Below are positions 17,593 through 46,734 of a stretch of 64,000 nt of DNA, in pieces. Position 1 is the stretch's first letter, and every line of letters begins with the position of its first letter. The DNA comes from a virus (lineage: Duplodnaviria > Caudoviricetes): the IMG/VR virus record IMGVR_UViG_3300029288_000107, positions 32,001-96,000 of that record, one strand, 5' to 3'. Under the pieces are notes generated by a model, which worked only from the letters and a program-made list of their open reading frames with translations, searched no databases and was not told the origin of the DNA. Position numbers and translations under genes: made by a program.

Positions 17593-19314
17593 ATGGCCAA
17601 GTGGACCGATCGGGTGCGTTCGTGGTGGCGGGGCCGCGGCAGCAGCGATGAGCTGGCTGAGGTGGCGCGCGGCGTAGGGCAGGGCAGCCCGGACGCGCTG
17701 CGTGTGCTGCCGCCGGACGCGGGGCCGGTAGTCACGCCCATGCTGCACGCGGATGGCCTCACGGACGGCATGGGGGCCATGCTCAGCGTGGGCACCGACC
17801 TACTGAGCAAATACATCGACATCGAATTGATGGACGAGTACCCTCCTCTGAGCGCGACCCTCGACGTCTACGCCGATGACGCCACGGTGCAGGACGTGCA
17901 GCGGGGCCACACTATCTGGGCCACCGGCAACGAGAAGCTGGCCCGGGACCTCGCGAACGACATGCTGTACCGCATCTTGCGCATCGACGACGACGCGTGG
18001 GGGGCCATGCGGACGATGGTCAAGTACGGAAATACCCCGGCAGAGATCGTGGCAAACGAGCGCGGCGTTCTGGGTCTCAACTTCCTGCCGCCCGCGTCGG
18101 TGCGCAAGGTGCTGGACCACAAGGGGGCGGTGGTCGGCTACGTGCAATCGGTGAGCGCGGCGGGCTTCGCGGCGGTGACCAGCGAGAGCTTCCCCAAGTT
18201 GCTGAAGGAGCGGGCGGCGGGCCCCAACAAGGACGGGGTGGTGGTGTTCGCGCCGTGGGAGGTCGTGTGGTGGCAGATGCCCGCCAAGCAGAGCCGGGCG
18301 CCGTACGGGGAGTCGGTGCTGAGCGCGGCGCGCTGGGCCTGGAAGCGGCTCATCATGCTGGAGGACGCCGCGGTGCAGATGCGGCTTACGAAGGCGCCTT
18401 CGAGATATGCAGTATATGTGGAATGTGGCCACATGCCGCCGAACCAGCAGTTGGCCTACCTGCGCAACGTCAAGAACCAGTGGAAGAAGCGAAAGGTGGT
18501 AGACCCGTCCACGGGGCAGCTCGATTTCCGGCCGAATCCTGCCGGGCTCGACGAGGACCTGTTCATCCCGGTGGTGGACGGGCGCGAGGCGACGCGGGTC
18601 GACGTGCTGAACGGCATCGACTTCAACATCATCGACGATCTGGAGTACTTCCGGGGGCAGATGATGAGCGCGACTCACGTGCCGAAGTCGTACATCTTCC
18701 AGACCGATGAGGTCACGCGTGCAAGTTTGTCACAATCCGATGTGATGTTCGCGCGGACGGCCATGCGGGTGCAGCGCCAGTTCATGGCGGGGATTCGGCA
18801 GGTGCAGCGGCTGCACTTCGCGCTGTTGGGGGTGGACCCGGACCAGGTGGAGTTGGACTTCGACATGACCGTGCCGTCGAGTGTGCTGGAGATGTCGCAG
18901 ATCGAGTCGGGCAACGCGCGGGCCGCGCTGGCGGCGGCGGTGGCCGACTTCTACGATCGCAAGACCATCCTGACGGAGGTGCTGGGCAAGAGCGAGGCGG
19001 AGGCCGAGACCATCATGCGGGCGCGCAAGAACGACTACGCCAACCAGGTCAGTCTGGAGGCGGCTGGGCAGCAGGCCATGATGGGCGGGGAGGCTGCGTT
19101 CGGGGGCGAGGCGGGCGCTGAGGGCGGCGCGCTGCCCACGCTGCCAGGCGAGGAGGCAGAGGGCGAGGAGGCGGCGGCCACGGAGGCGCTCCGGAAGCGG
19201 CTGGACAGGTTGGTGGAGGACGTGGAGCACTTGAACGGGGCGGTGCGGCGCACGGAGGATAACGTGCGGCGCCTGCCGCGGGTGCTGGCGCGATCGGCGC
19301 GGGGCCGGGGCTAG
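17593..19314 (+). CDS. portal protein, T4 gp20-like
   Basis: PYGESVLSAAR, LIMLEDA, EDLFIPV, IDDLEYF motifs. Confidence 0.92.
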   Translation: MAKWTDRVRSWWRGRGSSDELAEVARGVGQGSPDALRVLPPDAGPVVTPMLHADGLTDGMGAMLSVGTDLLSKYIDIELMDEYPPLSATLDVYADDATVQDVQRGHTIWATGNEKLARDLANDMLYRILRIDDDAWGAMRTMVKYGNTPAEIVANERGVLGLNFLPPASVRKVLDHKGAVVGYVQSVSAAGFAAVTSESFPKLLKERAAGPNKDGVVVFAPWEVVWWQMPAKQSRAPYGESVLSAARWAWKRLIMLEDAAVQMRLTKAPSRYAVYVECGHMPPNQQLAYLRNVKNQWKKRKVVDPSTGQLDFRPNPAGLDEDLFIPVVDGREATRVDVLNGIDFNIIDDLEYFRGQMMSATHVPKSYIFQTDEVTRASLSQSDVMFARTAMRVQRQFMAGIRQVQRLHFALLGVDPDQVELDFDMTVPSSVLEMSQIESGNARAALAAAVADFYDRKTILTEVLGKSEAEAETIMRARKNDYANQVSLEAAGQQAMMGGEAAFGGEAGAEGGALPTLPGEEAEGEEAAATEALRKRLDRLVEDVEHLNGAVRRTEDNVRRLPRVLARSARGRG

Positions 19315-19317
19315 ACC

Positions 19318-20049
19318 ATGGGGCTCCGGGCGCTGCTGGCCGTGGTGGAGGCCACCTACGCGCGTGACGCGAGCGTGCGTGAGCAAGCGGAGCGCTTCTA
19401 CAAGGACCTGTACGACTATCTGAACGTGGAGAAGGACGTGCTGGAGCGGCGGCTCACGCCGGGCAAGAACGGCGTGTTCAGCGTCATGGCGCGGGCCTTC
19501 ACGGACGTGGGGCCCGCGAACCTGATCGTGGTGTTCGCCACGTCGGTGGGTGGGCGCAAGGGTGGCACGGGGAAGCTGGGCCATATGGACGCGATGGTGA
19601 TCAACGCGTTGCTGGCACCGGGGGATCTGGCACACCTACAAAGCCGTGTGCAGAAGAACGTTGTGGTTCACGAGATGGTTCACATCCTGGACCCGGGGCG
19701 TCGCAAGGGCCAGATGAGCGCGAAGGCGGTGGAGCGCGGCGACGTGGCGGGCTACTACAACGAGCCCGGCGAGTGGAACGCGTACTGGCAGGAGGGGGCG
19801 TCGCAGCTGGAGCGGATGCTGCGCACGCTGACCAACAATGCCGGTCTGGATCCGGACTCGCGGTCGAAGGCGTTGGACTTCATGTTCGGGGACGGGAGCC
19901 TGCGATCCTTGCAGGGCAAGGTGGAGCGGTTCTGGGACGTTGACTTCCTGGACGCGATGGACGCCAAGGTGCGGCGCAAGTTCGACAAGCGGCTGGCGGC
20001 GCTGTGGGCCGCGTTGCGCGAGCAGGGGATGCTGCGGGGCGCGCCATGA
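19318..20049 (+). CDS. HExxH zinc-metallopeptidase-like protein with head-targeting-like leader
   Basis: HEMVH followed by YYNEPGEWNAY; N-terminus MGLRALLAVVEA. Confidence 0.65.
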   Translation: MGLRALLAVVEATYARDASVREQAERFYKDLYDYLNVEKDVLERRLTPGKNGVFSVMARAFTDVGPANLIVVFATSVGGRKGGTGKLGHMDAMVINALLAPGDLAHLQSRVQKNVVVHEMVHILDPGRRKGQMSAKAVERGDVAGYYNEPGEWNAYWQEGASQLERMLRTLTNNAGLDPDSRSKALDFMFGDGSLRSLQGKVERFWDVDFLDAMDAKVRRKFDKRLAALWAALREQGMLRGAP

Positions 20050-20777
20050 GTCTGCGCGGCCTTGCTCAACTGTTGGAGGGATCGACGGCTTCGCCCGAGG
20101 TGGAGGCCCTCGTCACGGAGATGATGCCGGTGCTGTCGCGGGGGCTGCCGCGGCCGATCATCCGCATGGTGGAGAAGCTGGGGGTGAAGTGGCTGGGTGA
20201 GTGCCGGTACAAGGTGGGCGACGCCACCACGACCATCTCCGTGCAGCGGTTCGTGGCTGGGGATGAGCCGACGCTGCGGCGCGTGATCGCGCACGAGTTG
20301 TGCCACCACGAGGACTTGTTGGCGGGGTGGGATGAAGCGGCGGCGAAGGGCTGGTCAACCGAGACCTTCCTCATGGATCGCAAGATTGAGAGCAAGGGGC
20401 ACGGGCCCGAGTGGCAGGCCATCGCGGCGGAGTTCAACCATCGGTACGGTGCGGGCTTCGTGACGCCCAAGAGCGACGAAAGCTACGCCAAGCAGTCGGC
20501 CACGCGGGACGCGCTGCTGTTGCTGTGGCAGAACGGGGCGCGTCTCATGTGGGCGGTCAGCGTGCGGCCCAGCGCGCGGCAGCGAGCGTACATCGAAAAG
20601 AAGCTGGGCGGCATCGACGGCCCGAGTATGCGGCTGGTGGCGACGCGCGACGTGGATCTGATACAGGGCGGCCCGCGGCCGGGTGATGGGTTCGCGTACT
20701 CCCACGACGTGCGGGTCAACGAGAAGCTGCTGCGGGCGTGGGAGGACGGGAAGAGGGTAGATCTGGCCGATGTGTAG
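20046..20777 (+). CDS. SprT-like zinc metalloprotease with leader
   Basis: IAHELCH and GHGPEW; N-terminus MSLRGLAQLLEG. Confidence 0.75.
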   Translation: MSLRGLAQLLEGSTASPEVEALVTEMMPVLSRGLPRPIIRMVEKLGVKWLGECRYKVGDATTTISVQRFVAGDEPTLRRVIAHELCHHEDLLAGWDEAAAKGWSTETFLMDRKIESKGHGPEWQAIAAEFNHRYGAGFVTPKSDESYAKQSATRDALLLLWQNGARLMWAVSVRPSARQRAYIEKKLGGIDGPSMRLVATRDVDLIQGGPRPGDGFAYSHDVRVNEKLLRAWEDGKRVDLADV

Positions 20778-20787
20778 GAGGCGTGAC

Positions 20788-21321
20788 ATGAGCTTGAGGG
20801 AATTGCGGCGGGACGTCGAGGAGCGGGCGCTGGACGAGGGGCTGGTGGGCAGCATCCTGCGCGGGGCCGGGCGGATCCTCGCGGCGCCGTTCGGCTCGGT
20901 AGCGAGGTCGGCGGAGGCGGCGGCCAAGCGGGCCAAGAACGCCAAGGCGAAGGGCAAGGTGGCAGCGAAGCCGGGGACGAAGGCGAAGCCGAAGGCGGGA
21001 CAGAAGGCGTCGGGGCAGCCCAAGGGGGCTCCCAAGCTGCCAGCGAAGGGCAAGAAGAAGGCGGCTGCCGGGGCGGTGCGGTCGCTGCGACGTGCCTCCA
21101 CGACGCAGTTGGAGCGCACGGCGAAGCGGGCGAAGAACCCGCAGATGCGGGTGGCGGCCAAGCGGGAGCTGGCGCGGCGCAAGGCGGGGCGGGGCAAGCA
21201 GGCGGTAGTCGCGAAGTCGGGGACGCAGGCGAAGCCGAAGCCGAAGGCGGGGCCGAGCCTCGCGAGCCGGGTGCGCGGCGCGCTGGCGGGCGCCAAGACG
21301 GGCTGGAAGGGGTCGCGCTGA
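20788..21321 (+). CDS. Lys/Ala/Arg-rich histone-like protein with leader
   Basis: MSLRELRRDVEERALDEG, then a very basic low-complexity body. Confidence 0.7.
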   Translation: MSLRELRRDVEERALDEGLVGSILRGAGRILAAPFGSVARSAEAAAKRAKNAKAKGKVAAKPGTKAKPKAGQKASGQPKGAPKLPAKGKKKAAAGAVRSLRRASTTQLERTAKRAKNPQMRVAAKRELARRKAGRGKQAVVAKSGTQAKPKPKAGPSLASRVRGALAGAKTGWKGSR

Positions 21322-24300: not shown

Positions 24301-25941
24301 ATGGGCTGGCTTTTCGAGATGATCCCGACCGGGCTGACGTTGACGGAGGCGGCGGGCGGCAAGCTCACGGCGCGGGGGCTGTTCGGCATCTGCGGCGTGC
24401 CCACGGCGAACGGCCGCATCTACCCGAAGAAGCTGGTGGAGCGGGAGATCGGGCGGCTTGGAGAGCGCATGAAGAACCGGCAGGTGCTGATGCAGCTCGA
24501 TCATCCTTCTGACGGAAAAGCATCGCTGTTGCAAGCGGCGGCGCTGCTCACCGGATTGGACCTCGACGGCGACAACGTCATGGGCGAGGCGGAGATCCTC
24601 GGCACGCCCAACGGCAAGATCCTGCGGGCGCTCATCGAGGCGCAGGTGAAGGTGGGCGTGAGCAGCCGGGGTTTCGGCAGCACCAAGGCTACCAACGAGG
24701 GCGAGGAGGTCGGCGAGGACTTCGCGCTGGCGAGCTACGACTTCGTGGCGGACCCCAGCGTGCGGACCGCGCTTCCCAAGTTCTACGCGGAGAGCGTGGA
24801 GGCGCCCGCCGAGGAGGCGCCGCTGGAGCTGTTCCAGCGGGAGTTCCCGGAGGCGTTCGCGCAGTTGACGGAGGCGGCGACCCGGGACGCGGTGGCGCGG
24901 GCGCAGGAGCAGACGGCGGCCATCATTGCGAAGGCGGTCGAGACGGAACGCACGCGCGTGCGAGACGAGATGACGGAGGCGTTCGAGCACCAGCTGCGGG
25001 ACGCCGTGGTTGGCTTGCGTGAGGATTTGGAGCGCGATCTGCGCGAGGAGTACGAGCGGGACCCGGCGGTGGCGGGGGCCCGGGCGGCGCTGGCGCAGGT
25101 GGTGGAGATGATCCGGCCGTACCAGCAGGCGCCGGACGCCGACGCGGTGCGGGACGCGCTGCGGGCGCGGGAGCTGGAGCTGGCCACGGCGCATGAGGCG
25201 ACGGCGCAGGCGGAGGAGCGGGCGGCGCGGTCGGACCGGCTGCTCGCGCTGGAGACCAAGCTGGCGGGGCACCCGCTGGCGGATCCGCTGCGCAAGGTGC
25301 TGGCGCCGGTGGTGGCGCGCGAGCGCGATGAGGGGCTGGCCGGGCGGCTGGACGACCTCATTGCGGAGGCGGCCGACATGGTCCCGGCGAGCGAGGTGGA
25401 GGCGCGGGCGGCCGAGCGCATCGCGCTCACCGAGGCGCAGGATCTGATCAAGGAGAACGAGCAGAAACGGTCCCAACTGGCGGAACGGGTGGACGAGTTG
25501 AAGGCCAAGTTGGTCGAAGCGGTGAAGCTGGGGCAGGAAGCGGACGGGCTGCGGGCGGAGGCCGAGCAGCGCGCGGAGGAGGCGGAAGCCAAGCTCGACG
25601 AGGGCGAGGCGGAGGTCGACGAGCGCGAGCTGGCGGCATTCAAACGCGGTGCGGCGGCGATTCTGCCTGCGGGCGCACGGGCGCGCAAGCTCATCGAGGC
25701 GGCTGGCGACGAGGCCGAGGTGGAGCAGGTGCTGGTGGAGAGCAGGGCGCAAGCCATGGGTGACGGGGACTTGGAGCAGGCGCGGCAGGCGGTCCGGGGC
25801 CGAGGGATGGCACCGGGGGCGGCCGCGTTCCGGCTGGAGGAGGGGGCGTCGCGCGGTGGTGCGCGGGGCTCCGACGAGGTGGTCTCGGCCACGGGCCTGA
25901 CCGCCAACGACATGACCGCGCTACTAGGAGACGGTCAGTAG
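24301..25941 (+). CDS. prohead protease (T4 gp21-like) fused to coiled-coil scaffold
   Basis: NGRIYP, QLDHP, GTPNGKI, GVSSRGFGS, YDFVADPS; long Glu/Ala coiled coil. Confidence 0.93.
   Translation: MGWLFEMIPTGLTLTEAAGGKLTARGLFGICGVPTANGRIYPKKLVEREIGRLGERMKNRQVLMQLDHPSDGKASLLQAAALLTGLDLDGDNVMGEAEILGTPNGKILRALIEAQVKVGVSSRGFGSTKATNEGEEVGEDFALASYDFVADPSVRTALPKFYAESVEAPAEEAPLELFQREFPEAFAQLTEAATRDAVARAQEQTAAIIAKAVETERTRVRDEMTEAFEHQLRDAVVGLREDLERDLREEYERDPAVAGARAALAQVVEMIRPYQQAPDADAVRDALRARELELATAHEATAQAEERAARSDRLLALETKLAGHPLADPLRKVLAPVVARERDEGLAGRLDDLIAEAADMVPASEVEARAAERIALTEAQDLIKENEQKRSQLAERVDELKAKLVEAVKLGQEADGLRAEAEQRAEEAEAKLDEGEAEVDERELAAFKRGAAAILPAGARARKLIEAAGDEAEVEQVLVESRAQAMGDGDLEQARQAVRGRGMAPGAAAFRLEEGASRGGARGSDEVVSATGLTANDMTALLGDGQ
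24950..24961. repeat. palindrome copy 7 (in CDS)
   Basis: exact 12-mer. Confidence 0.9.
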
Positions 25942-25969: not shown

Positions 25970-27616
25970 ATGACGAACAGCAACGGAATGGAGGCCCGGA
26001 GCCTGCTGGAGCAGGCGGGCGGGCGCGGACAGGGCACCATGCTCGACGAGTCCTACAACGCGCAGGTCGTGCGCAAGTGGTCCGACATGGACGTGCAGGG
26101 CGGGAAGGTCAACTTCCTGCGCGACCTCGACCCGCAGCGGGCTAAGGTGGCGGCGCTGTGTCTGGAGAACCAGGCGCGGTTCCTGCGCAACCTCAACGAG
26201 GACACGCTTTCGACGAACAGCGGCAGCTTCCAGAAGTACATCTTCCCGGTCGTGCGCCGCCTGTTCCCGAACCTGATCCTCAACGACATCGCGACGGTGC
26301 AGCCCATGACGGGTCCGCAGGGCGCGATGTTCACGCTGGAGTACCGCTACGACGACCGCAAGGGCACCAAGCGTCCGTGGGGCGGCATCGCGTTGCAGCC
26401 GTACCAGATGGGGTACGAGGGCGCGCTGGCGGCGAGCGACGACGCGATCAAGAACTTCGCGAAGAACTACGCGAACGAGTACGTGGACTACGACGCGGTC
26501 TGCACCGACACCGGCGCGGCGCCCGCGACGCTGTCCAACACGGATCTCAACTGCCGCGTCCCGGCCTGGTGGCCGATCCGGGCCCCGGGAACCAGCGGGC
26601 AGCGCACCTTCGCCGTGACGGCGGTGTGCCGTGTGACGGACGCTGCGGTGCCGGTGGTCGGCGCCTACACCAGCATCAGCACCAAGGCGGCGGCGACGGC
26701 GGTCCTCACGGACCAGTACGCGCACGCGACGGGCACGCTGGACATCTCGACGGGCGCGTGGACGGTCAACGCGCTGCTCATCGCGGGCGGCGCCTCGACG
26801 TTCGTGGCGAACACGGTCATCTACCTCCAGTACTGGGTCAACAGCGAGTTGACCTACACGGTCACCGGCAACCGGCTCCAGCGCATGTCGCTGAACCTGA
26901 CCCGGCACGACATCGTGGCCGAGCCGTGGCGGCTCAGCGCGGCCTGGTCGCTGGACGCGGCGCAGGACCTGCGGGCGCAGCAGGGCATGGACCTCGAAGC
27001 CGAGATGGTGGCGGGCATCGCCAACGAGATCGGCTGCGAGATCGACCGCACCGGCATCGACATGATGATCAACGGCGCGGCGCACGCGGCGTCGTACGCC
27101 TACGCGGGCACCTGGCCGGGCGACATGGAGAAGATCCACACGGCGGTCACCTACATCGACGCGCTGAGCGCCGCCATCTCGAAGGCGGGCGGGCGCGGCC
27201 CGGCGACGTTCGTGGTGGCGGGGCCGGAGGCGTCGGCGCTGCTCGGGCAGCTCGGCGCGCACACCGACTGGGCGAGCAACATGCAGATGCAGCAGCCCGC
27301 GTCGCACGGCGACCGCAACACGAACTACCCGATCAAGCGGGTGGGCTCGATCAACGGGAAGTACACGCTGTACGAGAACCCGTGGCAGGACAGCACGAAG
27401 GTGCTGGTCGGCTACAAGGGCGGCTCGTGGCTGGACGCGGGCTTCGGCTACGCGCCGTACATCCCGCTCTACGCGACGGACACCTGGACCGATCCGGACA
27501 CCCTGATCCAGAAGAAGGGCATGGCCAGCCGCGGCGCGCTGAAGCTGCTCCGTTCGGAGTACTACGGCGTGCTCACGCTCACCGGCCTGCCGACCGTCAC
27601 GTCGACCCTCGCCTAG
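25970..27616 (+). CDS. major capsid protein, T4 gp23-like
   Basis: LENQ, PVVRR, VQPMTGP, WSLDAAQDL, EIDR, VGYKG, YAPYIPL. Confidence 0.95.
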   Translation: MTNSNGMEARSLLEQAGGRGQGTMLDESYNAQVVRKWSDMDVQGGKVNFLRDLDPQRAKVAALCLENQARFLRNLNEDTLSTNSGSFQKYIFPVVRRLFPNLILNDIATVQPMTGPQGAMFTLEYRYDDRKGTKRPWGGIALQPYQMGYEGALAASDDAIKNFAKNYANEYVDYDAVCTDTGAAPATLSNTDLNCRVPAWWPIRAPGTSGQRTFAVTAVCRVTDAAVPVVGAYTSISTKAAATAVLTDQYAHATGTLDISTGAWTVNALLIAGGASTFVANTVIYLQYWVNSELTYTVTGNRLQRMSLNLTRHDIVAEPWRLSAAWSLDAAQDLRAQQGMDLEAEMVAGIANEIGCEIDRTGIDMMINGAAHAASYAYAGTWPGDMEKIHTAVTYIDALSAAISKAGGRGPATFVVAGPEASALLGQLGAHTDWASNMQMQQPASHGDRNTNYPIKRVGSINGKYTLYENPWQDSTKVLVGYKGGSWLDAGFGYAPYIPLYATDTWTDPDTLIQKKGMASRGALKLLRSEYYGVLTLTGLPTVTSTLA

Positions 27617-28086: not shown

Positions 28087-28650
28087 ATGCGTCTGGACGA
28101 GCTGAACGCGCGGGCTGTGGCGCCCGCGGAGTTGGGCGTAGGGAGCCTCGTGGAGGTGCGGACCCGCATGGGGGCCGTGGTGGCGGAGGGGGCCGCGGCG
28201 TACCCGACGGCGCATGGGACCTGCGTGGGGGGCCGCTTCTTCGACGGGGCGCTCTACCTGTTCCTGCCGAAGGAAACGCACGCGCGTGCGCCATTGGACG
28301 AGGCCAAGGCCAAGGAGAGGCGGGGCAAGTCCAAGTTGGGGCCGCTGGACCCGGAGGCGCTGCCGGATGACGTGCGGCTCGCCGTTACGGTGGACCACGA
28401 CCTCAACGAGGAGGACGTGCAGCGCGTGCTGGCCTCCATCGGCGATGCGGCGCTACAGGCACTGAAGGGAGTCGGCATGCGGGAGGACGAGGTCTACGCC
28501 CGCGTGGCCGCCGTGCTGAAGGCCGTGGAAAACTGCCTCGTGGCCAAGGAGGGCGCTGCGGAGGACGCGGCCGCCGCCAAGGCGCGCGTGGATGCGGCGA
28601 GCAAGGTCAAGCGCAAGGCGAGCGGCACCGACGCCGACGACGAGGAATAG
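28087..28650 (+). CDS. hypothetical head-associated protein
   Basis: MRLDEL start; internal LDEA site. Confidence 0.6.
   Translation: MRLDELNARAVAPAELGVGSLVEVRTRMGAVVAEGAAAYPTAHGTCVGGRFFDGALYLFLPKETHARAPLDEAKAKERRGKSKLGPLDPEALPDDVRLAVTVDHDLNEEDVQRVLASIGDAALQALKGVGMREDEVYARVAAVLKAVENCLVAKEGAAEDAAAAKARVDAASKVKRKASGTDADDEE
28278..28289. repeat. palindrome copy 8 (in CDS)
   Basis: exact 12-mer. Confidence 0.9.
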
Positions 28651-28653
28651 CAC

Positions 28654-29364
28654 GTGGGCACCGAGGCGGAGATCATCCTGTTCGTGCAGCGCACGCTGGG
28701 ATCGACCGTGGTGGACTGCGAGCTGACCACGGATCAGGCGGCGGAGGCCGTGACGTCGGCCAAGATGTGGTACGCGCACTACATCGGGCAGTACAAGAGC
28801 ACGACCATCACGCTGACCTCGGGCCTGACGGAGTACGCGGTGCCCACCGACTGCGATGCGATTGTGGAGGTCGTGAGCGACGCGGCGGACTCCGTGCTGA
28901 CGTGGGGCGGGTTCGACATCCCGGTCAACTTGACGCCCATCCTGCCGCGCGTGGGGGCCGGGTCGGGCTACATCTCGGACCTGACGCAGATGCTCCAGTA
29001 TACGGGGGCCATCCGGCGCACCGTGGCGCGGGACCAGGACTGGTACTACGACGAGGCGCGGCGGATCCTCGTCATCACGCCGACCACGAGCGGCGCCTCC
29101 ATGGTGCGCATCTGGTACATGGCCAACACGGTCGACGTGCAGCTGCTCAAGTACTACGAGTTTGGGCTGGTGCGGGAGTACGCGCTGGCGCAGGCCATGG
29201 AGAACCTGGGCAACATCCGCAGCAAGTACAGCGAGATGCCGGGCGCGGCGGGAGGCTTCTCCATGAACGGGGATCTGCTGGCGAGCAACGCCATGACGCG
29301 GAAGCAGGAACTGACCGACCAGCTGCTGAAGCTCCAGCCGCCGGTTGGCTTCATCAAGGGGTGA
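28654..29364 (+). CDS. neck/head-tail adaptor, T4 gp13-like
   Basis: LG..VVDCELT..Q; YALAQAMENLG.IRSKY..MPG..G...MNG. Confidence 0.85.
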   Translation: MGTEAEIILFVQRTLGSTVVDCELTTDQAAEAVTSAKMWYAHYIGQYKSTTITLTSGLTEYAVPTDCDAIVEVVSDAADSVLTWGGFDIPVNLTPILPRVGAGSGYISDLTQMLQYTGAIRRTVARDQDWYYDEARRILVITPTTSGASMVRIWYMANTVDVQLLKYYEFGLVREYALAQAMENLGNIRSKYSEMPGAAGGFSMNGDLLASNAMTRKQELTDQLLKLQPPVGFIKG

Positions 29365-29368
29365 TCGC

Positions 29369-29752
29369 ATGAAGACGGTAAGGGATCTGATGGAGGGCAC
29401 GGGCGAGGGGGTCGAGTTCTCCGCGTTGCAGAACGAGATTGCGGTCAAGTTCCTCGGGGCGGCGGCCAAGGCCATCAAGGCGTTCGCCAAGGGGCACGTG
29501 ACGAAGGCGGAGGTGAACGAGGGGCGGAACCACGCCGCGACCTACCTGTCCGTGGAGGCCACGACGCTTGGCGACATCGAGTTCTCGTGGACCTGCCAGA
29601 TCATGGTCGTGGACACGTTCGCGTGCGAGCTGCACGCCATGACGAATCGGGCCGACGAGCGGCGCACCGTCGACAGCAAGATGCGGCTCGCGATGGGGGA
29701 GTGCACCCCGGCGAAGGTCGTGGAACTGTTCAAGCAGGCGTACGGGATCTAG
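29369..29752 (+). CDS. putative internal head protein
   Basis: leader MKTVRDLMEG. Confidence 0.6.
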   Translation: MKTVRDLMEGTGEGVEFSALQNEIAVKFLGAAAKAIKAFAKGHVTKAEVNEGRNHAATYLSVEATTLGDIEFSWTCQIMVVDTFACELHAMTNRADERRTVDSKMRLAMGECTPAKVVELFKQAYGI

Positions 29753-29784
29753 CGCGCACGAGCGTGTGCGATTAGGAGAGGATC

Positions 29785-31311
29785 ATGGACGAGCGGCAAC
29801 CGATCGATGAGGCCAAGTTTCCAGCGGCGGGCAAGGGCATGGAGTGGGGCGAGAAGGAGCCGGTCGCGCCGGAGACGTTGCCGTCGTTCGTGGAGAAGTT
29901 GAAGCGGGACGAGGGCATGTTCGTGCTCGCCACCTACACGCGCATGACGTGGTTCGACCGCAAGGCGTGGGAAGCGTGGGAGCGGACCGGCAAGCTGATG
30001 ATCAAGGTGGCCAAGGACGGACGGAACTTCTGGACGTTGGAGGGGCGTGGCGTCAAGTACGTGTTCACGCAGCCGACGTCGATCTTCTGGTTGCCACGGC
30101 AGCCGGTGGAGGAGAGCATGGACGCGAACGACATGCGGAGTTGGATCGATCGGTGCGCGGGCATCGAGGTGGCGGCGGTGGCGGAGGCGGTGCGGCCGCT
30201 CGGGGGGCTGGACGTGGCGGCGGCGGACGACGAGGTGCAGATCCACTTCGAGAGCGCGGCCGACGCGCAGCTGGTCTACGACTTCCTGATCGGGGCGGGC
30301 ACTGGCGTCCGGCTGCTGGAGCCCGGCGAGGTGCAGCTGCGGGTCATCGAGGGATGGGACCAGTGCACGGTGGCGTTCGCGCCGCACGTGCGGTACCTCA
30401 AGCCGGAGATCATCGCGGCCGTGCTGGAGGCGTTTGCCGACCGCATCCACGAGGCGGCGTGGGATGCCGCGCAGCGCGACCTCGCGGAGGAGGTGCAGGC
30501 GCTCCAGGAGTTCAACCCGTACCACGACAAGCAGGGCAACTTCGGGTCCAAGGCGGGGCTGGCGGCGGCCAAGGCGGGCTCCTACAGCAAGGGGAGCCGC
30601 AAGAACAAGGTCAGCGGCAAGACCAAGAAGGGCCTCAAGCTGGTGGCCACCAAGTTGCCGTGCGGGCGCGACGCGCGGGACTCGGGCCGGAACCAGCGAT
30701 GCTGGGACGGCGCGAAGCTGGACTGGACGGGGCAGGCCGCGGCGCGCGTGCTCAAGAAGGCCAAGGCGCAGGGCAAGATCCACGATGCGGTCACGGCGTA
30801 CGACCGTGCGATCCTGGAGCGGGCGGCGCGGGCGCTGGACGCGCGAGCGGCGATGATGGACGAGGCGGCGGGCGCCAAGAAGCTGCGTACAGCGGTCAGC
30901 ACGGCCTACAACAAGTACTTCGAGAACGTGCCGGTGGACATCTTCGCGATCGGCAAGATCGGCAAGGAGATCGAGGCGCTGATCGTGGCGGGCAAGGACC
31001 TGGACGCGGAGATGCCCGCGATCGTGAAGAAGTACCGGAAGGAAGAGTCGGATGGGCGCTCCGTGCGGGACCTGCTGAGCGAGCTGGGCGGGCAGACCTT
31101 CGGGGGGCGGCGCGGGGGCCGTGATCCGTACTGGATGGCCGCCAAGTACGCGGGAAAGGACAAGAACGGGACGCCGTTCCGGAAGGGCGACCAGGTCTTC
31201 TACTACCCGAACACGAAGACGGTGCTGGCTGGCGACGCGGCGGAGAAGGCGGCGGCGGAGTTCCAGGGGGCCAAGGACGACGAGCGGCAGTACAACTACG
31301 GCATGGAGTAG
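29785..31311 (+). CDS. modular putative head polyprotein
   Basis: modules separated by IDEA, VEES, IHEA, LQEF, MDEA, LSEL; FNPYHD..G.F motif. Confidence 0.65.
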   Translation: MDERQPIDEAKFPAAGKGMEWGEKEPVAPETLPSFVEKLKRDEGMFVLATYTRMTWFDRKAWEAWERTGKLMIKVAKDGRNFWTLEGRGVKYVFTQPTSIFWLPRQPVEESMDANDMRSWIDRCAGIEVAAVAEAVRPLGGLDVAAADDEVQIHFESAADAQLVYDFLIGAGTGVRLLEPGEVQLRVIEGWDQCTVAFAPHVRYLKPEIIAAVLEAFADRIHEAAWDAAQRDLAEEVQALQEFNPYHDKQGNFGSKAGLAAAKAGSYSKGSRKNKVSGKTKKGLKLVATKLPCGRDARDSGRNQRCWDGAKLDWTGQAAARVLKKAKAQGKIHDAVTAYDRAILERAARALDARAAMMDEAAGAKKLRTAVSTAYNKYFENVPVDIFAIGKIGKEIEALIVAGKDLDAEMPAIVKKYRKEESDGRSVRDLLSELGGQTFGGRRGGRDPYWMAAKYAGKDKNGTPFRKGDQVFYYPNTKTVLAGDAAEKAAAEFQGAKDDERQYNYGME

Positions 31312-31314
31312 GTC

Positions 31315-31827
31315 ATGACGGTGCGCGTCTGGGGCGAGCAGGATCGGGTGATCCTGCGGCGGTGGGAGGCCGAGCGGAACGAGCTGATCGGGCCGACGGC
31401 GCTCTACTACAGTCTGGTCCGGGGGGCGCATGTGGATCCGTTGTACCAGGAGCCCGTAGCCGACCCGCTGTACGGGGGCCCGCCGACGGGCACGGGGGCC
31501 CGGCACACCGACGCGTTCGAGTACGTGGGGCCGTACAGCGTCATCGTGGCCGTGCTGTTCGAGCGGTCCTCGGGCCGCACCGTGCAGGCCGACGAGACCG
31601 GCGTGGAGGCGATGTACGACGGCGAGGTCTACGTGGCCCGCGACGAGTGGGAAGGCAAGGTGACGAGCGGGGTGCCCAAGGAGGCCGACGTGCTGTTCGT
31701 CAACAACGAGTGGTGGGACGTCATCGCGGCCAACACGGGCGGCCACGTCACGGACAGCGGGCACTTCGTGGGGTGGAAGCTTCAGGTCAAGAAGCGGGAT
31801 CGGTTCGAACCGAACCGGAAGGTCTGA
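31315..31827 (+). CDS. head closure/neck protein, gp14-like
   Basis: YYSL...VDPLYQE; PKEADV; position in the neck module. Confidence 0.7.
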   Translation: MTVRVWGEQDRVILRRWEAERNELIGPTALYYSLVRGAHVDPLYQEPVADPLYGGPPTGTGARHTDAFEYVGPYSVIVAVLFERSSGRTVQADETGVEAMYDGEVYVARDEWEGKVTSGVPKEADVLFVNNEWWDVIAANTGGHVTDSGHFVGWKLQVKKRDRFEPNRKV

Positions 31828-31837
31828 GGAGGGCAGC

Positions 31838-32140
31838 ATGAAGGTGCGGGATCTGATCGAAGTTGATCAGGGGCGTGACATTTGGATGGCGGGCATCGAG
31901 GAGATCGAGGGCCTGACCGGGCGGAACCAGCACGCGGAGGCGCTGCTGGCCAAGGCGAAGATGCTGCGGGCGCGCCGCGAGATGGCCGTCATCGCGCTGA
32001 TCCAGAAGATCCAGGACGTGGAAGGCGAGATGCCCGAAGAGTTGCAGCGCTACAAGAACGCGATCGGCAAGCGGCTGGACGCGGCGGCCAAGAACAAGGT
32101 GCCCGCAGATCTGCTGGATCGCTTCGTGCGGGCAGCGTGA
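31838..32140 (+). CDS. putative internal head protein
   Basis: leader MKVRDLIE. Confidence 0.6.
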   Translation: MKVRDLIEVDQGRDIWMAGIEEIEGLTGRNQHAEALLAKAKMLRARREMAVIALIQKIQDVEGEMPEELQRYKNAIGKRLDAAAKNKVPADLLDRFVRAA

Positions 32141-32151
32141 GGAGCGTGGCG

Positions 32152-32346
32152 ATGCGTCGGGTGGTAGCAATAGTAGTGGTGGCGGTGCTGGCGGCGGCCT
32201 GCGCGAGCCCGGCGCTGGAGTACGCGCGGGCGCGCAACCCGCACTGCCGGGTGACGCCGCTGGAGGATCGGGGCGACGCGGTGCGGGTGCAGATCGCGTG
32301 CCCGGACGAGGAGCCGTTCGAGCGGACGTACCGGAGTGGGCGGTAG
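32152..32346 (+). CDS. small lipoprotein
   Basis: MRRVVAIVVVAVLAAAC lipoprotein signal. Confidence 0.65.
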   Translation: MRRVVAIVVVAVLAAACASPALEYARARNPHCRVTPLEDRGDAVRVQIACPDEEPFERTYRSGR

Positions 32347-32349
32347 CCC

Positions 32350-33204
32350 ATGCCCCTGCTGCTGAGCATCGACGGCGGCGGCGCGTTGGGCATCGGGCCC
32401 TGCGAGCTGCTGGCACGGCTGGAGGAGGCGCAGGGGCGGCTGTTGCCGGACGCCTACGCGGGGACGTCAGTGGGGGCGCTGCTGGCGGCCCTGGCGGCGA
32501 CGGGGCGGCCCTGGAGCCACGTGCGGGAGATCTTCATGCGGGAGTGCCCCGGCATCTTCGAGCGGCCGTCGTGGGCGTGGCGGATGAACCCGTGGCGGCC
32601 CCGGTACGACGGTCGGGCGCTGCGGCGGGCCGCGCAGACCTACTTCCAGGACCAGCGGATGTGCGAGGTTGAGGTGCCGATCTTCCTGACCAGCTTCGAC
32701 TTCCACACGGGGCGGCCCAAGGTCTGGGATCGGGGCGACGCCACGCCGATCTGGCGGGCCGTGCTGTGCAGCGCGGCGGCGCCGACCTACTTCCACATCG
32801 TGGAGGGGCGCTACGGGGACGGTGGACTGGTGGCCAACAACCCGGCCATGGTCGGCTTGGCAGGCTGCGCGGCCAAGGAGAGTTGGGATCTGCGGACCGC
32901 GCGCTGCCTGAGCCTGGGCACGAACGGCGACGCGTGGCGGGACCCCAAGGTGGCGCACCGGACGTTGCTGGGCTGGCTGCGGCCGCTGCTGGCGACCTTC
33001 ATGGAAGGCAACGAGGAGCTGGCAGACTTCGAGGCGCGGGCCGTGCTGGGCGACCGTCTGCGGCGCGTGGAGCCCGCGCTGCGGCACGAGGTCAAGATGG
33101 ACGACGTGGCGGCGGCGCTGGGCCCGTACCGGCAGCGCTGGGTCGACCTGTGGCACGCGGAGAAGGACGCGATCCTGCTGTGGCTGCGGCGCACGGCGAC
33201 GTAG
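32350..33204 (+). CDS. patatin-like phospholipase
   Basis: IDGGGALG, GTSVG, SAAAPTYF, DGGLVANNP, LSLGT. Confidence 0.93.
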   Translation: MPLLLSIDGGGALGIGPCELLARLEEAQGRLLPDAYAGTSVGALLAALAATGRPWSHVREIFMRECPGIFERPSWAWRMNPWRPRYDGRALRRAAQTYFQDQRMCEVEVPIFLTSFDFHTGRPKVWDRGDATPIWRAVLCSAAAPTYFHIVEGRYGDGGLVANNPAMVGLAGCAAKESWDLRTARCLSLGTNGDAWRDPKVAHRTLLGWLRPLLATFMEGNEELADFEARAVLGDRLRRVEPALRHEVKMDDVAAALGPYRQRWVDLWHAEKDAILLWLRRTAT

Positions 33205-37876: not shown

Positions 37877-40800
37877 ATGAGTGAGCCGACCTATCCGGGC
37901 GTGTACCTTCGCGAGACGAGCAGCGGTCCCGGTGCGATCACGGGCGTGAGCACGTCGAACCTGGGCCTCGTGGGCTGGACCTCGCGCGGGCGCATCGACT
38001 ACCCCGTGCTGTGCACGTCGTTCGCCGACTACGTCGGAAAGTTCGGCGGATTCACGGCCGACGGGCTGGCGCCGACCATGGCGTACGCGTTCTTCGCCAA
38101 CGGGGGGCAGCGGCTCTACATGGTCCGCGTGGCGCACAGCGACGCGGTGGACGCCTCCTGCTTCTGGTACAAGACGGTGACCGGCGAGGTGCTGGGCCAC
38201 ACGGTGGAGGCGACGGGCCTCTACGTGCTGAGCACGAACAAGGTGCCGATTGTGCCGGGCTCGGTGCGCATGGAGTTCGAGGCGGCGGTCACCAACAATA
38301 TCTTCGAGGATGACGGCGCGGGCGCCATGACCTTCGTGGTGGCCGGGTCGGGCGGCGGCGGCGGCAGCGGTAGCATCGACTACGAGAGCGGCGAGATCAG
38401 CATCCAGCTCACGGTGCCGGGCGACTACATCGGCGGCGGCGGCGGCGCCAACGATCAGACCTGCACGTACGACTACCGGGTCGCGACGTTCACCATGCAG
38501 TGGCCGGGTGTGGTGGGCAACCTCTTCCGCGTGCGCATCACCGGGTCGCCCAACTACTACGACCAGGACACGGCGAGCTACAGCGCCTACAAGGTCATGG
38601 TCGAGGAGAACGTGGCGGCGGTGGGTGCGACGGCGAGCTGGCAGACCGACGAGACCTTCGACGAGGTGGTGCTCGACGACGCCACGGACGCCAAGTACTT
38701 CAAGACCATCATGGGCGACGTCTACAAGGGGTCGCAGATCGTGACGGTCACGGACTACGGCAACGCGCAGGACATCGCGGCGCTCAACGGCGTGGCGGTG
38801 ACGGCGGAGAACTTCGCAGGCGCGCAGGTGCCCGCGTACGACGGCACGACCAAGGCGTTCGCCTACACCATGGCCAACGCGGTGGCGCCGGGCACGTTGG
38901 AGGCCAGCTTCCAGTTCACGGAGTCGCTATACCGCATCGGCACCGGTGACGGCACGGCGGCCCCGGCCTGCAACCAGTTGGGTCACGACATCGAGGTGGG
39001 CGGCGGCACGGCGGCCACGGCGAAGGTGGTGGTCAACCTGACGCTGAGCATCGCGGGCGCCATCGCCATCTACGACGACGGTTTGGGCAGCCTGCGCACG
39101 GGTCCGTTCCCGGGCGTGGTGCACGGGACCGTGAGCTACACGACGGGGCAGGTCACGCTGGCGACGGCGGGCGGCAACGTGGTGGTGGGTGGATCGGCGA
39201 TCCGCATTTCCGCGGTCTACAGCGACGCGGTGGTCGTGGTGGACGACGGCAACGGCGGTGTGAGCGTGCAGACCCCGGCGGTGGGCACGGATCCGCCGAC
39301 GGAGTTCGGGCTCAACAGCAGTGGGACCAACAGCATCGACTACGACACGGGCGTGCTGACGCTCACGTGGAAGATCACGGGGCGCCCGGCGGACGGCCCG
39401 GCGGGCCTGAACATCGCGACGGCGGCGGCCAAGACCAGCACGGCGGGGCCGTGGGTGCTGACGCCGGGCTGCGCGTTCGACCTCGACGTGGACGGCGCGG
39501 GCGCGCCCACCACGATCACGTTCAACGCCACGCAGGGCTACGTGGACACCACGAACGTGTGGCCGGTGGCGGATTGCGACGGGTTTCTCGTCACGTTCGC
39601 AGTGAACGGGATCAACCGCACGGTGACGTTCGCCGGTGTCACGACGACGCAGGCGGCGGTCATGCTCCAGATTAACGCGCAGATCCCTGGCATCGCGAGC
39701 TACGATGCGGCGGGAGCGGCGAGGACGATCGCGGATCGGTACGGTAGCGGTTCGAACGTGACGATCGTGGCGAACACGACGGCCATGACGTTCGCGGCTC
39801 CGGTCGCGGGCACGGGCGACGCTTCCAACATCGAGGCCGTTACGGCGGCGGAGTACGAGACGCTGGTGGAGGGCCTCGTGGCCGCGGTGGCCGTCACGGA
39901 CAACGGCGACGGCACGCAGACCACGACATCGCTCACGACGGGCGTGGCGTCCGAGTTGACCTTCTCCAACCCGGTCCCGGCGGGCACGCTGACCGCGCTG
40001 GGAATCGTGGCGCCGCTCGACGTGTTTGGGACGGCGGGGTCGCTGGCGGGCAGCGAGTTGGCGGACTACTACACGCAGCCGAGCGACGAGGTCATCTACA
40101 CCATGACCAGTGGCAGCGACGGCACGGCCACCACGCGGGCGGACGTCACGGCGGCGGCGCTGGAGGCCAACGCGGAGGGCGTGTACGCGCTGTCCAAGGC
40201 CGACGAGATCATGCAGGTGGTCATCGCGGACTTCCAGACGGACGATGCGGTGTGCCGCGACGTGATCACGTTCTGCGAGAACATGGGCGACAAGTTCGGC
40301 CTGTTCACGGTGCCGGAGGGCCTCGACGAGCAGGAGGCGGTCAACTGGCGCAAGTTCACGCTGGCGCAGTACAGCAACAAGGTGGCGGCGCCGTACTACC
40401 CGCACGTCGCGATCACGGATCCGGTGAGCGAGGCCACGCTGAACATCCCGATCGGCGGCCACGTGGCGGGTATCTACGCGCGCACCGACAACAACAAGAA
40501 CGTGGGCAAGAACCCGGCGGGCGTCGAGGACGGCGCGCTGCGGTGGCTGGAGGGGCTGGAGGTCGACCTGACGCGGGCGCAGGTGGGCTACTGCGACCAG
40601 AACATGGTCAACTGCCTCGTGAGCTGGACGCAGACCGGCATGTGCGTCTGGGGCTGCAACACGCTGGAGGTGCCGGGCGGCCAGTTCGTGTACGTGTCGC
40701 AGAGGCGGCTCTTCCAGTACGTGGAGAAGTCGATCTTCAACGCGACGCACATCCACGTGTTCCAGAACAACGGTCCCGCGCTGTGGGCGGCCATCCGGCT

Positions 40801-40999
40801 CCAGGTCACCAGCTTCCTCATGGGGCTGTTCAACGCGGGCTACCTCGCGGGAACGACGCCGGACGAAGCGTTCTTCGTGGTCTGCGACGAGACCAACAAC
40901 GACGCGGACACCGCGCTGGTCTACTGCGACGTCGGGCTGGCCGTGTCCAAACCGGCGAAGTTCCTCATCTTCAGCTTCTCACAGCTGACGATTGGGTAG
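37877..40999 (+). CDS. contractile tail sheath with large internal insertions
   Basis: YPGVYLRE, FFANGG, YYPH, GHVAGIYARTD, VWG, YVSQRRL, AFFVVCDETNN, KPAKF. Confidence 0.95.
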   Translation: MSEPTYPGVYLRETSSGPGAITGVSTSNLGLVGWTSRGRIDYPVLCTSFADYVGKFGGFTADGLAPTMAYAFFANGGQRLYMVRVAHSDAVDASCFWYKTVTGEVLGHTVEATGLYVLSTNKVPIVPGSVRMEFEAAVTNNIFEDDGAGAMTFVVAGSGGGGGSGSIDYESGEISIQLTVPGDYIGGGGGANDQTCTYDYRVATFTMQWPGVVGNLFRVRITGSPNYYDQDTASYSAYKVMVEENVAAVGATASWQTDETFDEVVLDDATDAKYFKTIMGDVYKGSQIVTVTDYGNAQDIAALNGVAVTAENFAGAQVPAYDGTTKAFAYTMANAVAPGTLEASFQFTESLYRIGTGDGTAAPACNQLGHDIEVGGGTAATAKVVVNLTLSIAGAIAIYDDGLGSLRTGPFPGVVHGTVSYTTGQVTLATAGGNVVVGGSAIRISAVYSDAVVVVDDGNGGVSVQTPAVGTDPPTEFGLNSSGTNSIDYDTGVLTLTWKITGRPADGPAGLNIATAAAKTSTAGPWVLTPGCAFDLDVDGAGAPTTITFNATQGYVDTTNVWPVADCDGFLVTFAVNGINRTVTFAGVTTTQAAVMLQINAQIPGIASYDAAGAARTIADRYGSGSNVTIVANTTAMTFAAPVAGTGDASNIEAVTAAEYETLVEGLVAAVAVTDNGDGTQTTTSLTTGVASELTFSNPVPAGTLTALGIVAPLDVFGTAGSLAGSELADYYTQPSDEVIYTMTSGSDGTATTRADVTAAALEANAEGVYALSKADEIMQVVIADFQTDDAVCRDVITFCENMGDKFGLFTVPEGLDEQEAVNWRKFTLAQYSNKVAAPYYPHVAITDPVSEATLNIPIGGHVAGIYARTDNNKNVGKNPAGVEDGALRWLEGLEVDLTRAQVGYCDQNMVNCLVSWTQTGMCVWGCNTLEVPGGQFVYVSQRRLFQYVEKSIFNATHIHVFQNNGPALWAAIRLQVTSFLMGLFNAGYLAGTTPDEAFFVVCDETNNDADTALVYCDVGLAVSKPAKFLIFSFSQLTIG

Positions 41000-43672: not shown

Positions 43673-44298
43673 AGGCGATCTGCATCGCACCGAAGTTCAA
43701 CTCGGGGGCCAAGCACGATGCGACTGGCGCGTTTCAGCCGGAGGCGCGGGCCTTCGTGAAGCGGTGGGGAGGCACGCTGCTGCTGGTGGACAACCTTGCT
43801 GGTAAGGCGGCCATGCGGCGCGCCGTGCTGGAGGCGGTGGGGGCGGACCCGCCCGACGTGCTGGCGCTGTTCTGCCACGGGTGGAACACGGGCATCCAGT
43901 TTGGGTTCGGGCTGCGGGATGTGCCCGCGCTGGCCGAGCTGTTCCGGCGGAACGACCACGATCCGGTGATCGCGATCTACGGCTGCCTGACCGGCGGCAG
44001 CGCGGGGCCCGGCGGCGACGGGGGCTTCGCGGACGTGCTGCGGGATGCGCTCTGTGCGGTGGGGCAGGTGCAGTGCCAGGTGGACGCGCACACGACTGCG
44101 GGGCACGCGACGCGGAACCCGTACGTGCGACGCTTCGAGGGCGGGGGCGTGGCGAGCGGGGGCGTGGGGGGCTACTACCTCGTGACGCCGAGGTCGGCCA
44201 AGTGGCAGCGGTGGGTGCGGGCCTTGCAGGGCGATCTGCGGCTGCGCTTCCCGCTCATGTCCGCGATGGAGATTCATGCGGAGCTGGAGGGAGCATGA
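43669..44298 (+). CDS. putative clan CD (His-Cys) peptidase-like protein
   Basis: LALFCHG and IAIYGCLTG, then FA..L. Confidence 0.55.
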   Translation: MKAICIAPKFNSGAKHDATGAFQPEARAFVKRWGGTLLLVDNLAGKAAMRRAVLEAVGADPPDVLALFCHGWNTGIQFGFGLRDVPALAELFRRNDHDPVIAIYGCLTGGSAGPGGDGGFADVLRDALCAVGQVQCQVDAHTTAGHATRNPYVRRFEGGGVASGGVGGYYLVTPRSAKWQRWVRALQGDLRLRFPLMSAMEIHAELEGA

Positions 44299-44504
44299 GC
44301 CTGCGGGACTTGCGGCGGAGCATCGAGGAGAAGCGGCGGGTGGACCGGGATCCGGCCAAAGAGCTGTTCCACCGGTACTTCGACGACAAGCAGGTGCACA
44401 TGGAGGACGTCGCGAAGGTGATCGCGGAGATCGAGGACGCGCTGCGCGAGGGCAAGGACCCGAAGGCGTTCATGCCGGACCTCGTGCGGCGCTGGGGCAA
44501 GTAG
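44295..44504 (+). CDS. putative internal head protein, paralogous to a module of the 29785 protein
   Basis: leader MSLRDLRRSIEE; YF...V...K...EIE...GKD...MP..V. Confidence 0.7.
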   Translation: MSLRDLRRSIEEKRRVDRDPAKELFHRYFDDKQVHMEDVAKVIAEIEDALREGKDPKAFMPDLVRRWGK

Positions 44505-46437: not shown

Positions 46438-46734
46438 ATGAGTCTCGGACGGAAGCTGATACGGATGGGCACGCCGGAGGGGGATCTGCCGCCGCGGCTG
46501 CTGGCGCAGGTGGGGCGGCTGCGGACGGACGCGGTGCGGTTCTGCCAGGGGCGTGAGGCGCACGGATCGGTGGTGCTGGAGGGGGCGGCCGTGGTGGTGG
46601 ACCTCACGGGGCGGGATGCCGCGTTTGTGGCACGTCAACTCGCGCGGCGCGTGCTTGCACCGCTCCACGCGGTAGTGGAAGATGGTGGACGAGGTCACGC
46701 GCGGCTGCGGGTGACGGAGGAGACGTCGCAGTGA
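46438..46734 (+). CDS. hypothetical protein
   Basis: GGAGG RBS; GTGA overlap. Confidence 0.55.
   Translation: MSLGRKLIRMGTPEGDLPPRLLAQVGRLRTDAVRFCQGREAHGSVVLEGAAVVVDLTGRDAAFVARQLARRVLAPLHAVVEDGGRGHARLRVTEETSQ

Follow-up and report, generated by a model that had tools for sequence, protein, structure and literature searches.

The open reading frame (ORF) at positions 29785..31311 (+ strand) of a 64,000-nucleotide stretch of viral DNA, called the window below, encodes a protein of 508 residues, P0001, that is a mosaic of modules. The window corresponds to nucleotides 32001-96000 of a 104.8-kb IMG/VR contig (record IMGVR_UViG_3300029288_000107; CheckV completeness 57%). It has a G+C content of 67.5% and comes from an uncultured, metagenomic, T4-like phage with a myovirus-type structural module in the window. 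Sequence comparison strongly supports the view that P0001 arose by fusion of modules found singly or in a different order in other proteins, and that such modules are gained, lost and swapped at the joints between them. As to how such a chain is used, we lean slightly towards a mosaic precursor that would be loaded into the prohead and cut at its joints by an S77/gp21-type prohead protease, and P0001 is treated here as a candidate head-cargo polyprotein.

The mosaic make-up of P0001 is seen in the distribution of its homologues. An exhaustive phmmer search of 1.84 billion representative proteins (E<=0.001) returned 326 homologues, none of them full-length. The matches form five blocks, at approximately residues 10-110 (A), 137-240 (B1), 243-330 (B2), 360-420 (C) and 434-508 (D). 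Where homologues match near their own N-terminus, their residue 1 maps to P0001 positions -8 to -2, 114-120, 201-214, 337-351 and 418-444, and these positions are taken as module starts. Architectures were counted in the best 150 of the 326 matches together with P0002, a protein encoded elsewhere in the window. D was the commonest block, found alone in 32 proteins and with other sequence on both sides in 29. B1-B2 occurred alone in 15 and with unrelated flanks in 16 more, B2 alone in 2, and B1-B2-B2 in 1. A alone and C alone were each found twice; C with other sequence before it was found in 4 proteins, C-D in 1, and C-D with other sequence on both sides in 1.

Individual proteins illustrate this exchange of modules. 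A occurs alone with its own leader in P0010 (gene 1619-1981 of locus L050) and P0026, behind a Zn-finger module in P0054 and in locus L049, and before other modules in P0007 and P0124. B comes first in the leader-started protein P0003, which begins at the A|B joint of P0001; B1 is found without a full B2 in P0067 and P0071, B2 stands alone with its own leader in P0062 and P0108, and B2 is present twice in P0009. C is alone with a leader in P0120, and D is alone with an N-terminal leader in P0063, P0072 and P0129. These stand-alone forms start with a leader exactly where P0001 has a joint. A leader like that at the C|D joint precedes D internally in P0006, P0011, P0012, P0013 and P0155, and in each of the pairs P0011/P0012 and P0155/P0013 one member cleanly lacks an entire module that the other has between two stretches of leader or cut-site sequence. 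D is also found inside proteins of up to 2114 residues among the database matches and 2314 residues at locus L028. The proposal of an earlier note, made from the letters of the window, that genes had fused here and that modules could be gained and swapped in this way, is borne out by these partial, isolated and reordered homologues and by the significant alignment of module C described below. No match was obtained when the whole ORF, B2 or D was searched by tblastn against 50,697 phage records. A search for related loci with the whole of P0001 returned none; smaller block alignments did yield loci.

The frame of P0001 is open over all 508 residues, with a uniform G+C content of 0.95 at third codon positions (GC3). 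The ORF opens with a putative acidic propeptide of nine residues (29785..29811, +; isoelectric point, pI, 4.2) ending in I-D-E|A. In stand-alone A homologues and in L049, a canonical leader ends in Glu at the same spot, before the conserved F-P-S/A-A-G start of A. Module A follows (residues 10-110; 29812..30114, +) and is defined by homologues and by an AlphaFold model, with a per-residue confidence (predicted local distance difference test, pLDDT) of 80-92. The joint A|B (residues 111-136; 30115..30192, +; pI 4.1), running from V-E-E|S to V-A-E|A, corresponds to the leader of B, and pLDDT falls below 50 over residues 110-142. B1 (residues 137-222), conserved in all B homologues and modelled with pLDDT of about 90, is followed by an acidic spacer (residues 223-242) ending in L-Q-E|F (together 30193..30510, +). 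B2 (residues 243-300, pI 10.3) and the native tail of B (residues 301-359, pI 10.0), which ends in M-D-E|A, occupy 30511..30861 (+). Residues 301-359 are assigned to B as its C-terminal tail, given that P0005 and P0008 terminate there, and C therefore has no leader of its own. Residues 348-359 had been considered as a decayed leader of C; this was ruled out, since they match the native C-terminal tail in B homologues, of which two stop at that point.

Module C (residues 360-421; 30862..31047, +), modelled with pLDDT above 90 over residues 380-417, is followed by the joint C|D (residues 422-433; 31048..31083, +), an internal leader ending in L-S-E|L. As the earlier note had observed, the last block begins with an internal copy of the leader, R-S-V-R-D-L-L-S-E, now placed at residues 425-433 (nucleotides 31057-31083). 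Module D (residues 434-508; 31084..31308, +) is a widespread domain of about 60 residues with pLDDT of 95-98. A promoter and terminator scan of 28600-32400 found nothing inside the 508-residue ORF on its own strand.

Six block boundaries had been proposed in the earlier note, and five of them fall on edges defined by homologues: IDE|A marks where mature A begins and VEE|S where A ends, B2 begins at LQE|F, the B tail meets C at MDE|A, and mature D begins at LSE|L. The sixth, IHE|A, has no independent support, and the list missed VAE|A (residues 134-136), at which the leader of stand-alone B homologues ends. The further idea that all blocks are free cargo did not hold for B, which is a conserved resident of its genomic slot. 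C, lacking a leader, follows the native end of B.

A member of the C family is also encoded as a separate gene in the window (44295..44504, +). Its product, P0002, has 69 residues and a canonical N-terminal leader ending in I-E-E|K. By frame plot the gene is coding: the GC3 signal shifts into this frame near 44280, and the start codon ATG overlaps the stop before it. The match between this product and the block of P0001 at about 30860-31040, first made by eye, proved significant. Residues 368-417 of P0001 align with residues 18-67 of P0002 by BLASTP (32 bits, E 5e-7 in pairwise comparison, 30% identity), and the Smith-Waterman score of 73 compares with 30.3±4.4 and 30.9±4.7 for shuffles of either partner, none of 2000 shuffles reaching 73. 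The C block of P0001, however, shares 46-55% identity with C modules of other metagenomes, whereas P0002 is about 25-30% identical to all of them; the two proteins of the window are thus distant paralogues. C forms the C-terminal end of the protein in all six other homologues. In P0001 the stop after C is gone, and the leader of D comes next.

The leaders belong to a motif that recurs in the genome. At least 10 window genes with unrelated bodies, starting at 19318, 20043, 20788, 21321, 29369, 31838, 42710, 44295, 45780 and 46731, share an N-terminal leader consisting of Met, one or two residues, L/V-R-x-L and then hydrophobic-x-Glu within 8-17 residues, and related phages carry many more such genes. 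In T4, L/I-x-E is the site after which gp21 cleaves, and the internal proteins carry a capsid targeting sequence (CTS) of 10 residues that serves as both address and cut site (PMC9026906). By analogy, the leader is most likely the counterpart of the CTS in this clade, as an amphipathic N-terminal peptide. A protease of the gp21 family, presumed to be the processing enzyme, is present at 24301-25941 (+): Pfam Peptidase_S77 (PF03420) was matched with E 1.3e-21 and 77 bits against a cut-off of 27, and phrog_207 with E 2.8e-44. The major capsid protein (MCP; 25970-27616; Pfam Gp23, PF07068, E 5e-56; PHROG 138) begins with a leader-like peptide, E-A-R-x-L-L-E (25970-26020), that is conserved in the MCPs of loci L005-L008. 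In clade MCPs a further hydrophobic-x-Glu is kept immediately ahead of the conserved mature core (D-T-L-S-T), and the clade protease keeps a hydrophobic-x-Glu before its catalytic domain. In all nine clade members the leader of D, whether internal or N-terminal, ends in hydrophobic-x-Glu, while the neighbouring residues vary.

Internal leaders were counted with a Glu-anchored matrix built from 19 N-terminal leaders. Eight mosaic proteins gave 9 internal matches against 1.99 expected, a number reached in none of 500 shuffles, and five of the nine lie at module joints, including that at residue 433 of P0001 (score 10.2). As a control, 12 structural proteins without leaders gave 3 matches in 4277 residues.

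The position of the gene is conserved among related IMG/VR phages. The shared gene order is portal, g22192, scaffold, S77 protease, gp23-type MCP, g28087, adaptor, a variable slot, g31315 and then sheath. In loci L005-L008 the slot holds a gene of 287-393 residues that matches P0001 in block B only, the gene of L005 having about 120 unmatched C-terminal residues. In P0006 (619 residues), the slot gene of L010, a leader and B are followed by a Zn-ribbon module, a second leader, D and one more module. The closest relative, L049 (MCP E 2e-265), has a slot ORF of at least 631 residues that runs off the contig end; its order is Zn-finger module, canonical internal leader, A, leader, B1, B2, tail and C, after which comes a module without relation to D, and its A-B-C chain is about 60% identical to that of P0001. 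Modules also occur outside the slot. In L050, a separate gene with its own leader, located after the g31315 homologue, encodes A (identical to P0010). In L014, L015, L022, L023 and L025, D has a leader-bearing gene to itself, of 88 residues, downstream of the g42086 homologue, the region in which the window keeps its stand-alone C gene. From this synteny, B is the conserved resident of the slot, while A, C, D and the other modules are add-ons that have been added, removed and exchanged. In L004 (8843-10378) no stop separates the adaptor gene from the B gene, and the ATG of B, at which P0008 starts, is retained; the read-through may be a true fusion or an error in the sequence.

The predicted structure of P0001 resembles beads on a string. 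AlphaFold2, run with an alignment of 54 sequences, gave a mean pLDDT of 76.8 and a predicted template modelling score of 0.34. Confident domains lie at about residues 11-107, 150-240, 245-298, 380-417 and 446-503; pLDDT is below 50 at residues 110-142, 301-317 and 434-443, and short helices are predicted over the leaders. Computed pI values are acidic for the leaders and spacers (4.1-4.8) and basic for A, B2, the tail, C and D (8.3-10.3); the predicted pieces are of 6-12 kDa. B2 is very basic, with invariant columns N-P-x-H, G-S and P-C-G-R-x-A-R and a second Cys, and from this sequence DNA binding by B2 is a reasonable guess.

Database searches assigned no function to any module. No family in Pfam, PHROG or NCBIfam was found at E<=0.01 for P0001, which had no Pfam match even at E<=1, and these databases gave no functional lead for P0002 or the relatives. 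Eight of the ten long D-bearing relatives had no Pfam match at E<=0.001, the exceptions being OAS1_C in P0051 and DUF3008 in P0115. Foldseek with the whole P0001 model found nothing in the PDB at E<=0.001 and only uncharacterised small phage proteins in BFVD; the ESM Atlas gave only hypothetical clusters. A VIA-align comparison of D with 48,161 chains gave a best Z of 4.0-4.1 (PARP-1 Zn1; root-mean-square deviation 2.8 Å over 53 residues), a weak resemblance to zinc fingers of the zf-PARP/treble-clef kind that lies within the range of chance arrangements. Variants of D with four Cys were found in other viral contigs; the D of P0001 does not have those four Cys.

Two further features of D-bearing genes were seen. 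A motif of the type R-F-E-E-G-K-P-A-D-P-T stands just before D in P0040, P0051, P0058 and P0146 and in L012, L013, L024 and L032; it is conserved in many long D-bearing proteins and is sometimes repeated. A D-like hypothetical gene of 63 residues at locus L048 (NZ_CP016455.1, 21629-21820) lies directly upstream of a ParB/RepB/Spo0J gene of 607 residues on mobilizable Sphingomonad plasmids, its similarity to D being partial; similar matches occur on eight other plasmids.

These observations can be arranged into a probable course of events. The slot gene B (B1, basic B2 and tail), placed between the adaptor and the g31315 homologue in every related phage, has acquired modules in frame in this phage, A upstream and C and D downstream, and these would have arrived by loss of stop codons and by recombination at the short sequences coding for acidic leaders. 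The precursor would enter the prohead core by way of its leader peptides. The S77/gp21-type protease would then cut after Glu at the joints, at about residues 9, 110, 136, 242, 359 and 433. The small acidic leaders would be discarded and proteins of 6-12 kDa would be freed, all basic except the acidic B1. The freed proteins may stay with the DNA and would probably be injected. A more general idea, for which the balance tips slightly the other way, is that in a clade of environmental T4-like phages leader plus Glu cut site acts as a reusable joint: cargo genes would be lined up in one frame after a resident head protein, and their products packaged together in constant ratio and released by the protease. 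The repeated DNA of the leader would be the recombination site for gain, loss and exchange of modules.

Several observations weigh against cleavage at the joints. [LIVM]-x-E occurs 13 times in P0001, so the cut-site motif alone does not pick out the joints, and hydrophobic-x-Glu sites in domain interiors are conserved in L049 as well as those at joints, with no separation between the two. The N-terminus of P0001 itself is not a canonical leader and keeps just I-D-E|A, the canonical copy being internal; to our knowledge, the T4 CTS works only at the N-terminus. The B|C joint has no leader. B is conserved and possibly structural, which does not fit a free effector, and the adaptor frame of L004 even continues into it. 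When P0001 is taken alone, the internal leader is one independent match against 0.23 expected with the Glu-anchored matrix, a borderline value. An Arg-anchored matrix was dropped, as it was dominated by the start Met; with it the internal leader scored 7.7, the 95th percentile of shuffles. The leader statistics of P0001 by itself are weak, and the case rests on comparison with homologues.

Other explanations of the long frame have to be considered beside this one. P0001 may stay whole, as a multi-domain virion or early protein of the polyvalent type, in which the leader-like stretches would be relics of fusion and now flexible linkers. Mosaic multi-domain proteins beside virion genes are well known (PMC5512222), and the leaders at the A|B joint are degenerate. 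The A-B-C order is in frame in L049 too, so the chain itself may be selected, and D lacks leaders inside proteins of up to 2314 residues in many unrelated viral contigs. Against this, the D leader keeps its terminal Glu and a hydrophobic residue two positions earlier in nine of nine clade members, while the neighbouring positions vary. Internal leaders are also enriched over both shuffles and controls, and the same phage has a protease of a Glu-specific family and at least 10 leader-bearing genes. An intact P0001 thus appears rather unlikely, and cleavage at the joints is preferred.

Separate production of the modules from internal translation starts, the long frame being an operon that has lost its stops, is improbable as the full explanation and could coexist with cleavage. 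At the A|B joint, GGAGGAG stands 3 nucleotides before an in-frame ATG (Met112), at the start point of stand-alone B genes, and because of this some B-C-D product could arise by internal initiation. The C|D joint retains a purine-rich GGAAGGAAGAG, but the sole ATG there is out of frame and its frame stops after 8 codons; no in-frame start codon is present at the D leader, B2 or C, and therefore proteolysis would be the only way to separate D from C. Translation initiated at 29785 would in any case still yield the whole chain. Very little weight is given to an artefact of assembly or sequencing that removed the stops between adjacent small genes. The contig is metagenomic, and L004 shows an odd read-through from adaptor to B; but in-frame errors would be needed at all three junctions, GC3 is uniform along the ORF, and comparable fusions occur on independent contigs from other samples (A-B-C in L049, P0006 of L010, P0011, P0013, P0155 and P0054).

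Among known systems, the internal proteins (IP) of T4 come closest to the proposed precursor. IPI, IPII, IPIII and Alt are likewise found in a phage with a gp21-family (S77) protease and a gp23-family capsid, and in both cases many unrelated small, mostly basic proteins carry a short N-terminal leader ending in hydrophobic-x-Glu, at loci that vary between relatives. The internal proteins of T-even phages are diverse, with the CTS as their sole common sequence (PMC3012670). The T4 proteins, however, are encoded by separate genes with one N-terminal CTS each, whereas P0001, whose packaging and cutting are putative, has several modules in one frame with leaders in internal positions. No homology to IPI, IPII, IPIII or Alt was found, either in Pfam, PHROG and NCBIfam (E<=0.01) or by tblastn in the 50,697 phage records. 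The system of P0001 is thus best described as an analogue of the CTS-tagged cargo of T4, in a different gene family.

Cutting of one polypeptide at several sites by a prohead protease has been described for T4 gp22, gp67 and gp68 and for the propeptides of ejection proteins in phiKZ and SPN3US (PMC9026906, PMC10052503, PMC5694885). A single polypeptide with several Glu sites and a gp21-type protease is also what is proposed for P0001. In those systems, however, the pieces of scaffold or propeptide leave the head and one mature product remains, whereas the pieces of P0001 would be folded modules that are independent genes elsewhere. A Pfam search gave no match to the phiKZ/SPN3US paralogue family A (PF12699) or related families.

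Polyvalent proteins (Iyer et al. 2017, PMC5512222) are mosaic multi-domain proteins encoded by phages and conjugative elements, with modules shuffled from one element to another, and are believed to accompany the DNA. They share with P0001 the presence of two or more shuffled domains in one polypeptide and a position beside virion genes, and a D-like gene lies beside ParB on plasmids. Processing proposed for them is autoproteolysis by a built-in metallopeptidase, in contrast to the prohead protease at repeated targeting leaders proposed here, and P0001 is much smaller. None of the catalogued polyvalent domains (MuF, ART, MPTase, PBECR, LPD and others) was found in P0001 (Pfam E<=1) or in the ten long D-bearing relatives (E<=0.001). 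With the polyproteins of eukaryotic RNA viruses and retroviruses only a logic would be shared, as an analogy: one product, a viral protease, and several proteins in fixed proportion. The protease family, the type of virus, the place of cutting (here inside the prohead of a DNA phage) and the purpose all differ. No account of leader-jointed chains turned up in a full-text literature search on polyproteins combined with prohead protease, ejection proteins or inner body.

The remaining structural genes place the ORF in its neighbourhood. The portal lies at 17593-19314 (phrog_213, E 1e-44), the head-tail adaptor at 28654-29364 and the sheath at 37877-40999; the identity of the MCP to those of cultured phages is just 23-30%, a remote relationship. 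A small leader-bearing gene (29369-29752) stands between the adaptor and the 508-residue ORF, and the conserved gene g31315 (31315-31827, 170 residues) follows directly after it. Between the stop of the gene at 29369 and the ribosome site of the ORF, a near-copy of a dispersed GC-rich palindrome (29753-29778) fits the placement of that palindrome between stop and Shine-Dalgarno sequence elsewhere in the genome.

The region between portal and g22192 contains other leader-bearing genes. Those at 19318-20049 and 20043-20777 each have a zincin-like H-E-x-x-H, and their products, for which no Pfam or NCBIfam match was obtained, are candidate head-packaged metallopeptidases. The gene at 20788-21321 encodes a very basic, Lys/Ala-rich protein of 177 residues with a canonical leader, which resembles a histone-like or T4 IP-like internal protein that coats DNA; a similar K/A-rich stretch is fused behind module A in P0007. 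The genes at 19318, 20043, 20788 and 21321 are missing from L004-L008, where the portal adjoins the g22192 homologue.

The ORF at 46731 had been regarded in the earlier note as a smaller polyprotein of the same kind, and this is not supported by its homologues. Its nine homologues are co-linear, and among the near-length proteins searched seven of the eight non-self members cover 81-100%, the exception being a match of 137 residues from a contig of 699 nucleotides. The homologues keep an internal leader-like stretch ending in L-Q/M-E. The public call for this gene, P0156 (183 residues), begins at an internal Met and leaves out the leader with its GTG start (46731-46853). Several homologues are likewise called from a point just behind the leader, and leader-bearing genes with GTG starts may be systematically mis-annotated.

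The T4 CTS is the textbook route by which anti-defence and takeover proteins are loaded into the head, and it has also been used to package foreign proteins. If the internal leaders of P0001 work as cleavable joints, they would explain how injected proteins are so readily gained and exchanged in such phages, and a polyprotein strategy would be added to the biology of DNA phages. A simple design rule would also follow, by which several cargos could be packaged in set ratios. All modules belong to families without annotation, D being common across viruses and plasmids, which makes them candidates for new early-acting or anti-defence functions.

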